Positions 39,001 through 42,000 of a stretch of 64,000 nt of DNA are shown one piece after another. The stretch is taken from the NCBI RefSeq assembly GCF_000026545.1, contig NC_011601.1. One strand, given 5' to 3'. Made by a program: the position numbers. This DNA comes from Escherichia coli O127:H6 str. E2348/69 (lineage in GTDB: Bacteria; Pseudomonadota; Gammaproteobacteria; Enterobacterales; Enterobacteriaceae). How positions within the stretch are numbered: position 1 is the stretch's first letter; every line of letters starts with the position of its first letter.

Positions 39001-42000
39001 GAATCGACGGTTTGCGGCAAAAAACACTGACGGCGCTGCGGGAATGGTTACCAGAGTTTGCTGCGCGTTGTCGACAGTATGACAGCTTTGGTTTTTACGC
39101 GGCACTAAGCCAGTTATTGCTGGTGTTAGTGGAGTGTGACTACCAAAAAAGATAATGCCGTTTGTAGGCCTGATAAGACGCGGCAGGCGTCGCATCAGGC
39201 ATTAGTGCGCAGTTGCCGGATGCGGCGAGAACGCCTTATCCGGCCTACGGGAACAGTGCTTTTTGTGGGCCTGATAAGATGCGTTAAGCGTCGCATCAGG
39301 CATTAGTGCGCAGTTGCCGGATGCGGCGAGAACGCCTTATCCGGCCTACGGGAACAGTGCTTTTTGTGGGCCTGATAAGATGCGTTAAGCGTCGCATCAG
39401 GCATTATGGCGCAGTTGCCGGATGCGGCATGAACGCCTTATCCGGCCTACGGGAACAGTGCTCTTTGTAGGCCTGATAAGACGCGTTAAGCGTCGCATCA
39501 GGCAACAAACTCACGGGTGAGCCACAAACCGGGAAAGCCGCTGGCGCAGCAGGCGGTTTTCCTGCTTCAGGTGCGCAATATCATCCATTAACGTCAGCGC
39601 CATCGCGATCCCCGGCCAGTCCAGAGCCAGTTCATGACGCAGGCGTACCGCGCGTTGCACCACAATGGCGGCATGGTCGTCAAATACCCAGGTTGTCTCC
39701 TGGATCTCACTCGGTTCAACCACCCCCAAACCGACAATTTCATTCAACTCCTCTTCAGAGATGCCGGTATGCAGGCAAAATTCGGTAATAGTAAAAGTCA
39801 CCGTAACATTAGCCATTATGCTTTCCCCCAATCTTTACGTGGATCAAAAGACGACTGGGCGTCTGCCAGTTGCTGCCACAGCGCGGCAGTGTTTTCATCC
39901 GGTTTCGGCGGCATCACGATTTTCAGTACCGCATACAGATCGCCGGTCTGTTTTTTGCTCACCAGACCTTTGCCTTTAACGCGCAATCGTTGCCCGGCCT
40001 GGCTGCCAGGCGGGATAGTCAGCAAAATGCTTTCTTTCAGTGTTGGAACGGTGACTTTAGTACCCAGCGCCGCTTCCCACGGGCTAACCGGCACCACTAT
40101 TTCCAGATCCTGGCCGACAATATCAAACAGCGGATGTGGCGCAATGTGAATCACCAGCCACAGGTCGCCATTTGGACCGCCGTTTTCGCCCGGCGTCCCC
40201 TGGCCTTTCAGGCGGATGCGTTGACCATTGCCGACGCCCGCCGGGATCTTCACATTCAGCGTTTTCGGGATTTCCTGTTCGATCATGCCAAAGGCGTTAT
40301 AAACCGGCAGGTTATAGCTGATGGTACGCTTATGCTCAGTAAGCGTTTCTTCGAGGAATACCGCCACTTCGATTTCAATATCGTGGCCGCGTGTGGCGGG
40401 GCGTTGACGGCTCTGGCGGGCATGCTGACCGAAAATTGACGAGAAGATATCGTCAAAATCTTCGGCGTTAAAACTCTGACCGTCGCCATGATGGAACTGA
40501 CGGTTAAATTGCGGATCGTTGCGATGTTGCCACATCTGATCATACTCAGCGCGACGTTGTTCATCACTTAACACTTCCCAGGCTTCAGCGACCTCTTTGA
40601 AGCGGGCTTCGGCATCAGGTTCTTTGCTGACATCAGGATGGTATTTGCGGGCCAGTCGACGATAGGCGGTCTTGATTGTCTTGAGATCGTCCGTCGGTTT
40701 CACGCCCATGATGGCGTAATAATCCTTTAATTCCATAGCGTTATCTCGCGTAAATCAACACAAATTGAAGGAACCCCTGTAAGGTAACTCCTATAAGTGT
40801 AGGGTAATCCTCAAAATTTCATATGCCAACACAGAATATGTTATTGAAATCATCGCGGAGGGGAGGTCGCCTCAAGGTGGGAGGAACATATTTTATTTAC
40901 CTCACTCCTGAACTTTTGGCTCATGCTTACAAGTTAAACAATAAGGAAAGGAATGCACAACTCGACTATTTAAATCGTTATGCAATTTAATGATAAAGAC
41001 ATGTGCTAAAAACCATTTCTATTAGTCTCACATTCTTTTTTTATTGGTAATGGTAACGCCGCTGATTTTCTTTATAGCTACTGATGTAATCATTAGCGGC
41101 GTAAACGAGGCCGGGGCTAATCAGGCATAGTTTGCGTCAAAACTTGCCTGTTTTTAAAGGGGAATATAGAAAAACAGGCGTTCAACGAGCCATTTTGCGA
41201 ACCTGTTCCCGGAAAAATGACATATTTCTGTCACACTCTTTAATTATTGATAACAAAAGAGGTGTGAGGAATGAACAAAACGCTAATCGCCGCAACTGTG
41301 GCAGGGATAGTTTTACTCGCTTCAAATGCTCAGGCACAAACCGTACCGGAAGGCTATCAGCTACAGCAAGTGCTCATGATGAGCCGCCATAACTTACGTG
41401 CGCCGCTGGCGAACAATGGCAGTGTGCTGGAGCAGTCGACGCCGAATAAATGGCCTGAATGGGACGTCCCCGGTGGGCAGCTCACCACTAAAGGGGGCGT
41501 GCTCGAAGTGTATATGGGCCATTATATGCGTGAATGGCTGGCAGAACAGGGGATGGTGAAATCAGGGGAATGCCCGCCACCGGACACCGTTTATGCCTAT
41601 GCCAATAGTCTGCAACGCACTGTCGCGACCGCGCAGTTCTTTATTACTGGCGCATTCCCTGGGTGTGATATTCCTGTTCATCACCAGGAAAAAATGGGCA
41701 CTATGGACCCCACCTTTAACCCAGTGATCACCGATGATTCCGCCGCATTCAGTGAACAGGCGGTGGCGGCAATGGAGAAAGAGCTCAGCAAACTCCAGCT
41801 TACCGACAGCTACAAGCTACTGGAACAAATCGTTAACTATAAAGATTCTCCTGCGTGTAAAGAGAAGCAACAATGTTCGCTTGTAGATGGCAAAAATACC
41901 TTTAGCGCGAAGTATCAACAAGAACCGGGCGTTTCCGGGCCGCTGAAAGTCGGCAACTCGCTGGTAGATGCGTTTACTTTGCAATACTACGAAGGTTTTC

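Follow-up and report, generated by a model that had tools for sequence, protein, structure and literature searches.

A seven-unit BIME-2 repeat array between the convergent torCAD and cbpAM genes of Escherichia coli O127:H6 str. E2348/69

Introduction

The REP/BIME-2 arrays of Escherichia coli (BIME, bacterial interspersed mosaic element) have been known since the 1990s, together with their Y/Z2 structure, their variation in copy number and the fact that IS1397 targets them. By the published definition a BIME-2 combines z2 and y units in tandem multiples with short variable linkers, the number of copies at any one locus depending on the strain, and a BIME-1 is a single-copy pair of a Y and a Z1 unit between which lies a long L linker that contains an IHF site (Ton-Hoang et al. 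2012, PMC3333891). The model array in K-12 is REP325, which consists of 12 alternating Z2 and Y units (bioRxiv 10.64898/2026.03.23.713779), and the original model for REP325 and the RNA naRNA4 is that of Qian et al. 2015 (PMC4550694). The role of the RNA in nucleoid compaction is contested even for REP325.

The present analysis concerns a repeat between torD and cbpM in a 64-kb window (64,000 nucleotides, one strand, contig NC_011601.1) of the chromosome of strain E2348/69. No paper on the REP locus between torD and cbpM was found in our literature search, nor any mention of the two genes in the supplements of the 2026 preprint or in PMC3333891, and the RefSeq annotation of K-12 carries no repeat_region feature at this locus. 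It is shown below that the array is an ordinary and already known type of Escherichia coli intergenic repeat.

Results

The intergenic region of 355 bp (39156-39510) is taken up almost entirely by the array, as judged from the ORF list, the RefSeq annotation and Tandem Repeats Finder (TRF). It is flanked by torD, the last gene of torCAD (38556-39155, + strand, stop codon TAA at 39153-39155), and by the convergent cbpM, the last gene of cbpAM (39511-39816, - strand, stop codon at 39511-39513); both genes are in the ORF list and in the RefSeq annotation, for which record NZ_CP059840.2, 100% identical to the window, was the source. TRF reported a single array at 39161-39504, with a score of 604 and a period of 101, the 3.4 copies of which match at 95% and have 0% indels, and an ungapped repeat finder detected a 147-nt stretch three times at a spacing of 101/101 within 39156-39504. 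The first-pass annotation had described a tandem REP/BIME array of about 3.5 units of roughly 100 bp at 39157-39504 as a normal chromosomal feature; its coordinates and unit size are accurate and its description is upheld, with BIME-2 as the more precise class.

The array is wholly extragenic, the torD stop codon bounding it on one side and that of cbpM on the other in both the ORF list and RefSeq. Its internal ORFs, of 32-56 aa, are unannotated, and most of them are copies of two 33-aa sequences that derive from the repeat; the units lie outside any translated gene, and they are shared with other REP loci. In the window the REP core motif was counted 12 times, where shuffles lead one to expect 0.61; seven of these occurrences are inside the array, and the motif with the GTAG foot occurs nine times against 0.58 expected. 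A second BIME with near-identical units was observed in the window at about 61404-61530. When a 901-nt query was searched in 5,425 genomes, it matched a median of four places per genome.

In each 101-bp unit a Y-type REP is followed by a 14-nt linker, and then an inverted Z2-type REP by a 16-nt linker, which bears out the earlier statement that every unit contains inverted REP palindromes: there are two per unit, in opposite orientation. Altogether seven palindromic units follow one another in the order Y(+) Z2(-) Y(+) Z2(-) Y(+) Z2(-) Y(+), all of them 34-37 nt long and all folding, at -15.5 to -21.3 kcal/mol on either strand, into a hairpin with an internal mismatch.

The first unit, Y1 (39164-39200, + strand), has its GTAG foot on the + strand and the loop GGCAGG, folds at -20.5 kcal/mol as + strand RNA and -21.0 kcal/mol as - strand RNA, and is identical to the REP325 Y unit at 35 of 37 positions. 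It is followed by the Y-Z2 linker ATTAGTGCGCAGTT (39201-39214), which is repeated at 39302-39315, occurs as the variant ATTATGGCGCAGTT at 39403-39416 and matches the REP325 linker at 8 of 14 positions. Z2a (39215-39248, - strand) carries its GTAG foot on the - strand, folds at -21.3/-20.0 kcal/mol and agrees with the REP325 Z2 unit at 32 of 34 positions. Between the Z2 and Y units, from one GTAG foot to the other, runs the 16-nt linker GGGAACAGTGCTTTTT (39249-39264); it recurs at 39350-39365 and as the variant GGGAACAGTGCTCTTT at 39451-39466, with 10 of 17 positions identical to the REP325 linker.

The remaining units are Y2 (39265-39301, + strand), with the foot GTGG instead of GTAG; Z2b (39316-39349, - strand), identical to Z2a; Y3 (39366-39402, + strand), identical to Y2; Z2c (39417-39450, - strand), with the loop variant CATGAA; and Y4 (39467-39503, + strand), the last unit before the cbpM stop codon. 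The foot is therefore GTGG in Y2 and Y3 and GTAG in the other five units (Y1, Y4 and the three of type Z2), and both kinds of linker are identical or 1-2 nt apart between units. The Y and Z2 types were assigned through 89-95% identity to the REP325 units. The array combines the properties of REPs (imperfect palindromes of 30-40 nt with an internal mismatch, a GTAG foot, extragenic position and membership of a dispersed family) with those of BIME-2 (inverse alternation of Y and Z2, short linkers conserved within the locus and tandem copies that vary between strains), and there is no evidence against its identification as a BIME-2.

The whole array folds much more stably than its shuffles do, with z = -11.6 (+) and -7.5 (-), and its consensus fold comprises two hairpins. 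In an alignment with nearly invariant stems, compensatory changes were seen in 0 of 24 pairs, so the alignment gives no evidence of structural selection beyond recent copying. No intrinsic-terminator-like site was found within 39156-39510 on either strand: a T5 run begins 11 nt past the Z2 stem, whereas in an intrinsic terminator the U tract comes immediately after a GC-rich hairpin.

The comparison of strains for copy-number variation that had been suggested with the first-pass annotation proved informative, since the gap between torD and cbpM measures 355/356, 254, 151-153 or 92 bp depending on the strain. Gaps of 355/356 bp were found in E2348/69, UTI89, NU14, D10 and FDAARGOS_1252, and the 254-bp gap in ST131; most strains have 1.4 copies or a decayed 92-bp remnant. 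Phylogroup B2-type sequence occurs with 3.4, 2.4 and 1.4 copies; the gaps of non-B2 strains measure 151-153 or 92 bp and contain decayed REPs, such as those of K-12 with the feet GTGC and CCCAC. The 92-bp remnant is consistent with an internal deletion of 59 bp. A REP is retained at this position in every allele examined.

Carriers of 3.4 copies make up roughly 7-9% of 5,426 complete genomes, a rough figure estimated from evenly spaced row samples. Counting them through the band of >=99% identity with an 85-nt diagnostic junction was rejected as an exact count because short partial matches of 100% identity share the band. A search for longer alleles with a synthetic 4.4-copy query placed no genome having a 1002-bp span ahead of the 3.4-copy alleles.

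Within E2348/69 itself, 39187-39305 equals 39288-39406 exactly over 119 nt at an offset of 101. This identity marks a very recent 101-bp tandem duplication (39187-39406), to which E2348/69 owes the unit that the ST131 allele lacks. The most likely way for copy number to change is that the near-identical units undergo slipped-strand mispairing or recombine unequally with one another. At the canonical site between yafL and lfhA, E2348/69 carries hicAB instead of rayT, and with rayT absent from that site a REP transposase is unnecessary to explain the change. In one strain (N24) the REP-targeting element IS1397 (PMC1525189) is inserted in a Z2 loop of the torD-cbpM array.

Discussion

We hold it to be highly probable that the locus is a seven-REP BIME-2 array (3.4 x 101 bp) between torCAD and cbpAM, the functional part of this explanation being drawn from published work on REPs. 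By that analogy the array likely acts as a bidirectional 3'-end hairpin block, as a partial terminator for torCAD and cbpAM and as a gyrase site.

Transcripts entering from either side would form stable REP hairpins of about -15 to -21 kcal/mol each, and these may stop 3'-to-5' exonucleases and favour both pausing and partial Rho-dependent termination, REP325 being described as a partly Rho-dependent terminator and mRNA stabiliser. As a bidirectional 3'-end element the array could lessen convergent read-through between torCAD and cbpAM, and REPs between convergent genes are associated with higher expression of both genes. The TAA of torD lies 8 nt from the GTAG foot and 12 nt from the stem of Y1, and the stem of Y4 ends 7 nt from the cbpM stop codon on the - strand. 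Because both stop codons are within 15 nt of a REP stem (12 and 7 nt), the first hairpin on each side could also make terminating ribosomes stall, with less TorD and CbpM translated as a result; REPs at <=15 nt from a stop codon stall ribosomes according to the summary of Liang et al. 2015 in PMC12306157.

At the DNA level the array may serve as a binding and cleavage site of gyrase, which would fit the positive supercoils of convergent transcription; high-affinity binding and cleavage of BIME-2 by DNA gyrase is credited to Espeli and Boccard 1997 where that work is cited in PMC3333891, the introduction of which also covers topological insulation by BIME-2. The effects of REPs depend on context, and terminal REPs on average do not extend mRNA half-life (2026 preprint). 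Since most strains have 1.4 copies or the 92-bp remnant, units beyond these are probably dispensable. The GTGG foot in place of GTAG in two of the four Y units is counted as a weakness of the functional part.

There is an appreciable, though lesser, chance that the array is for the most part selfish or neutral DNA, namely a REPIN-like Y-Z2 doublet that was once seeded by RayT/TnpA-REP, whose copy number now drifts through slippage and which does not meaningfully affect torCAD or cbpAM. Such a history would agree with the span of copy number among healthy strains, between 3.4 units and a 92-bp remnant, with the decayed REPs of the non-B2 alleles (the K-12 feet among them), with stems devoid of covariation and with the persistence of REPs in the roughly one third of Escherichia coli genomes that lack rayT, E2348/69 included as regards the canonical site. 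It fits poorly with the strong bias of REPs towards 3' ends, with the link of convergent-gene REPs to higher expression, and with a gap that holds no other terminator-like structure but keeps a REP in every allele examined. Moreover, it speaks to origin and dispensability and is compatible with a modest role at the 3' end.

A bolder proposal, which we regard as improbable, is that BIME-2 copy number is a heritable, lineage-specific expression dial for the ends of torCAD and cbpAM, acting on stability and stop-codon stalling. The steps of the dial would be gains and losses of the 101-bp unit, giving 1.4, 2.4 and 3.4 copies in phylogroup B2 strains, and these natural alleles are usable to test the proposal of REPs as a tunable 3' UTR dial. 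In a further variant, the cbpAM 3' UTR would release HU-binding RNAs resembling naRNA4, coupling the output of CbpA, a nucleoid protein, to an RNA that binds HU, a second one.

In another rival reading the units are naRNA4-like RNA genes, whose products would be cut from the cbpAM 3' UTR, bind HU, bridge REP cruciforms and condense the chromosome. The model of Qian et al. offers a precedent, and three matches to the Rfam family naRNA4 (RF02564) were indeed obtained at 39167-39245, 39268-39346 and 39369-39447 on the - strand, which is the cbpAM sense, each spanning a Z2 hairpin, a linker and a Y hairpin. Their scores of 81, 75.5 and 75.2 bits exceed the gathering score of 59.5, and scores on the + strand stay under it (46-53 bits). 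However, the three units pass this threshold because RF02564 was built from REP325, of which it matches all six units in K-12 at 95-111 bits compared with 75-81 bits here; the match rests on the common Y/Z2 hairpins, and other BIME-2 units should match too. With no RNA gene at this place in the RefSeq annotation either, we consider RNA genes of this kind improbable. Rfam-based annotation could nonetheless call three "naRNA4" genes here that are really BIME-2 units.

A further rival reading is that the copy number of 3.4 is an assembly artefact. The first-pass annotation had cautioned that the repeat might affect assembly, and the caution is plausible: two overlapping exact copies cover 220 nt (39187-39406), more than a typical short read, so the repeat could in principle be mis-estimated as longer or shorter than it is. 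A stretch of this kind may mislead short-read assemblies and variant callers. For the present allele, an artefact is nevertheless very hard to credit, as five complete assemblies made independently (those of E2348/69, of a pair of O127:H6 strains and of 2022H047 and 2022H048) agree in the 901-bp span and the score, the same length is found in many other B2 strains (UTI89, NU14, IHE3034, UM146), and other lineages show discrete alleles one or two units shorter.

The likewise reasonable warning that the array might be mistaken for CRISPR is readily dismissed, for although its palindromic repeats, about 35 nt long, are regularly spaced, the possibility of a CRISPR array, small or degenerate, is refuted to near certainty by the anatomy (adjacent repeats of two types, mutually inverted, with conserved 14- and 16-nt "spacers" that are themselves repeated) and by the Rfam scan (no match to any family of CRISPR repeats at E <= 1), and no cas genes are annotated within the window.

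In practical terms, the torD-cbpM gap provides a simple length marker for some lineages, for instance 355/356 bp as against 254 bp in ST131.

Comparison with known systems

The alleles of K-12, O157 and ECONIH4 occupy the same position and begin with the same Y-linker-Z2 unit as that of E2348/69, and they differ in having 1.4 copies (151-153 bp) or the 92-bp remnant, in the decay of their REP feet and in a final unit that is a short Z-like palindrome and not a Y. A BIME-1, for which RIP and RIB element are further names, is likewise built of REPs and includes a Y unit; here, in contrast, the partner unit has the REP325 Z2 sequence and the linkers measure 14-16 nt. The BIME-1/IHF reading was rejected on the tandem copies, these short linkers and the absence of an IHF consensus site from the torD-cbpM gap.

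REP325, located between yjdM and yjdN of K-12, has the same unit architecture, with a period of 100 and 5.8 copies compared with 101 and 3.4 here. Identity with the torD-cbpM array is 89-95% over the Y and Z2 units but only about 57% over the linkers; REP325 comprises 12 units instead of seven and lies inside a tandem operon and not between convergent genes. With the BIME-2 family at large, named in the nomenclature of Bachellier, Gilson and Hofnung, the array shares the inverse alternation of Y and Z2, short linkers, tandem multiplication, near-identical units within the locus, extragenic position and strain-variable copy number. It departs from that family in the GTGG foot of two Y units, its linkers being locus-specific as published for BIME-2, and there is no difference in kind.

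Location and architecture of the array

The gap between torD and cbpM holds a single tandem array at 39161–39504, for which Tandem Repeats Finder returned a period of 101, 3.4 copies, 95% matches, no indels and a score of 604, while an ungapped repeat finder recovered three in-register 147-nt copies at spacings of 101 and 101 nt (39156–39504). Both tools bear out the first-pass annotation, which had accurately placed about 3.5 units of roughly 100 bp at 39157–39504. The window contains 12 occurrences of the REP core motif GCCKGATGCGRCG (at most 1 mismatch), 7 of them inside the array, where shuffles predict 0.61, and 9 occurrences of the GTAG-foot motif, for which the expectation is 0.58; the repeat greatly exceeds what chance would give. 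A 901-nt query from the window was 100% identical to the E2348/69 chromosome NZ_CP059840.2, whose RefSeq annotation supplied the flanking gene names. The array is flanked by two convergent genes, torD, the last gene of torCAD (38556–39155, plus strand), and cbpM, the last gene of cbpAM (39511–39816, minus strand), separated by an intergenic gap of 355 bp (39156–39510).

Each 101-bp unit comprises four parts: a 37-nt Y-type REP (plus-strand GTAG foot), a 14-nt linker from Y to Z2 (ATTAGTGCGCAGTT), a 34-nt Z2-type REP (minus-strand GTAG foot), and a closing 16-nt linker (GGGAACAGTGCTTTTT). The inverted REP palindromes earlier noticed in every unit are these Y and Z2 REPs of opposite orientation. 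Seven palindromic units are present, namely Y1 (39164–39200), Y2 (39265–39301), Y3 (39366–39402) and Y4 (39467–39503) with plus-strand feet, alternating with Z2a (39215–39248), Z2b (39316–39349) and Z2c (39417–39450) with minus-strand feet; the foot of Y2 and Y3 is GTGG, not GTAG. Every unit is predicted to form an imperfect, internally mismatched hairpin on both strands (−15.5 to −21.3 kcal/mol), and the region as a whole folded far more stably than shuffled controls, at z = −11.6 on the plus strand and −7.5 on the minus strand.

Copy number among strains and possible exchange between units

Comparison of the torD–cbpM gap between strains, as had been proposed, revealed several lengths. The gap is 355/356 bp (3.4 copies) in E2348/69, D10 and FDAARGOS_1252, 254 bp (2.4 copies) in ST131, 153 bp (1.4 copies, B2-type sequence) in FDAARGOS_1284, 151–153 bp (1.4 copies, decayed REP feet and a different last unit) in K-12 and O157, and 92 bp in ECONIH4, a remnant consistent with a 59-bp internal deletion. 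In 40 sampled rows for the 901-nt query, the matched span was 901 bp in 3, 800 bp in 5, 697–699 bp in 17 and 638 bp in 13. A second sample of 40 rows from 1,500 matching genomes contained 13 full-length matches (at least 97.6% identity), 12 of them at three places per genome, and the two of these 12 that were checked had 355/356-bp gaps. Allele frequencies from such evenly spaced samples of match lists are rough estimates only, and suggest 3.4 copies in roughly 7–9% and 2.4 copies in 11–13% of 5,426 genomes, the rest having fewer. With a synthetic query carrying a fourth full unit, no genome with a span of 1002 bp outranked the 3.4-copy alleles; the best matches, an E2348/69-like group (E2348/69, two O127:H6 strains and 2022H047/2022H048), and the next ones (UTI89, NU14, IHE3034, UM146 and similar) all spanned 901 bp, and therefore no genome of this collection appears to exceed 3.4 copies.

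Judged from its sequence, the extra E2348/69 unit relative to ST131 is a recent duplication, marked by an exact repeat within the array (39187–39305 identical to 39288–39406). The 3.4-copy alleles are mosaics: linker variants ATTAGTGCGCAG and ATTATGGCGCAG, together with Y-loop variants, occupy different unit positions in E2348/69, D10 and FDAARGOS_1252, a pattern which suggests repeated unequal exchange or gene conversion among units and not a single duplication. Slippage or unequal recombination would be the simplest mechanism of copy-number change.

Strain N24, which has a 2.4-copy allele, carries a frameshifted IS1397 family element in a Z2 loop of its torD–cbpM array (1917–3381 of the extracted locus L006, NZ_CM165898.1), with no obvious target-site duplication in the bases flanking the insertion. 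REP-specific insertion of IS1397 is known from experiment (PMC1525189), and the N24 insertion is an independent confirmation of the REP behaviour of the array sequence. The REP-associated transposase gene rayT was found in 3,575 of the 5,426 genomes, in agreement with the published share of two-thirds (PMC3333891). At the canonical yafL-lfhA site, where K-12 has rayT, E2348/69 has a hicA-hicB toxin-antitoxin pair between yafL and an lfhA pseudogene (32294–32921 of the extracted region L012; chromosome 3907294–3907921), a replacement described mostly in B1 strains (Ton-Hoang et al., PMC3333891).

Predicted role at the convergent junction

Transcripts of torCAD (plus strand) and cbpAM (minus strand) would enter the array and could form up to seven stable hairpins. 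Hairpins of REP325, the K-12 model array between yjdM and yjdN, act as a partly Rho-dependent terminator and a 3′ decay block; where REPs lie between convergent genes, both genes tend to be more highly expressed, and about 40% of such REPs fall inside terminators earlier identified as bidirectional. Neither a terminator-like hairpin followed by a T run (both strands) nor an IHF consensus site was found within the torD–cbpM gap and, because the gap lacks an intrinsic terminator, the array is the obvious candidate 3′-end element for both operons. The distance from stop codon to nearest REP stem is 12 nt for torD and 7 nt for cbpM; both values fall inside the 15-nt limit at which REPs are reported to stall terminating ribosomes and reduce translation (Liang et al. 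2015, as described in PMC12306157). BIME-2 elements are also reported as gyrase sites and topological insulators (PMC3333891), a role plausible for an array at a convergent junction. We infer these hairpin-function, ribosome-stalling and gyrase steps from published work on other REPs. Alternatively, the array may be neutral or selfish DNA, as the fewer or decayed units of most strains would fit; this is possible but rather doubtful, and is compatible with a modest 3′-end role.

Other features of the window

A lambdoid prophage, in which the gpJ and tape-measure genes are frameshifted, occupies approximately 1–32600 and its end adjoins torT; since torS is absent from the window, the prophage lies on the torS side of torT. 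Its cargo includes the T3SS effector genes nleB2, nleC and nleD and an nleH fragment, and a 45-nt tandem repeat in its tail-fibre gene is present in two copies (82% match, 27649–27739). The interval between cbpA and agp in E2348/69 contains no more than an annotated pseudogene fragment of 102 nt (40889–40990), but K-12 has yccE just past cbpA. The agp–yccJ interval carries a transposase gene of ISEc13 (IS4-like; 42701–44074). A second, smaller BIME between efeB and phoH (61404–61530) is made up of three palindromic units, one Z-like and decayed, one Y whose foot is CTAC and one Z2 whose foot is GTAG. Antisense to phoH (62023–62811, plus strand) is a strong Rfam match to Ysr251 (RF02855; 62613–62806, minus strand; 188.7 bits against a gathering score of 100).

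Family assignment and comparison with REP325

Ton-Hoang et al. describe BIME-2 as a tandemly multiplied combination of z2 and y whose linkers are short and variable, the tandem copies being well conserved within a locus and differing in number between strains (PMC3333891). All features of this definition that can be tested in sequence are found in the array, which does not fit the definition of BIME-1; it is a textbook BIME-2 REP array, and its first-pass identification as REP/BIME and a normal chromosomal feature holds.

Three minus-strand matches to Rfam naRNA4 (RF02564), a family built from REP325, exceed its gathering score of 59.5 bits, at 81, 75.5 and 75.2 bits, and formally fit a naRNA4/HU nucleoid organiser. 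They arise because the Y and Z2 hairpins are shared with REP325, all six units of which score 95–111 bits with the same model, and, read at this level, they mark BIME-2 units and are no demonstration of dedicated RNA genes. A 2026 follow-up, with one author in common with the 2015 naRNA4 paper, saw no measurable compaction, no REP-REP Hi-C contacts and no stable ternary complex, and such an organising role is very improbable here. A CRISPR array is ruled out by the array anatomy, and an assembly artefact by concordant independent assemblies.

What is new beyond the first-pass annotation is only a precise parts list, an allele series with a recent duplication, the trap that naRNA4 sets for annotation, and the short distance between each stop codon and its neighbouring REP. 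When ten Y-Z2 units drawn from four loci (the array, REP325, the same gap in K-12 and O157, and the efeB-phoH BIME) were folded to a consensus, the expected two hairpins emerged with compensatory changes in 0 of 24 pairs; therefore unit conservation reflects recent copying, and covariation lends the structure no independent support. REP325, described as 12 alternating Z2 and Y units (bioRxiv 10.64898/2026.03.23.713779), has the layout of the array with a period of 100 and 5.8 copies. The linkers of the two share only about 57% identity, whereas their Y and Z2 units align at 89–95% identity, differing in loops, feet and one stem position in Y2 and Y3.
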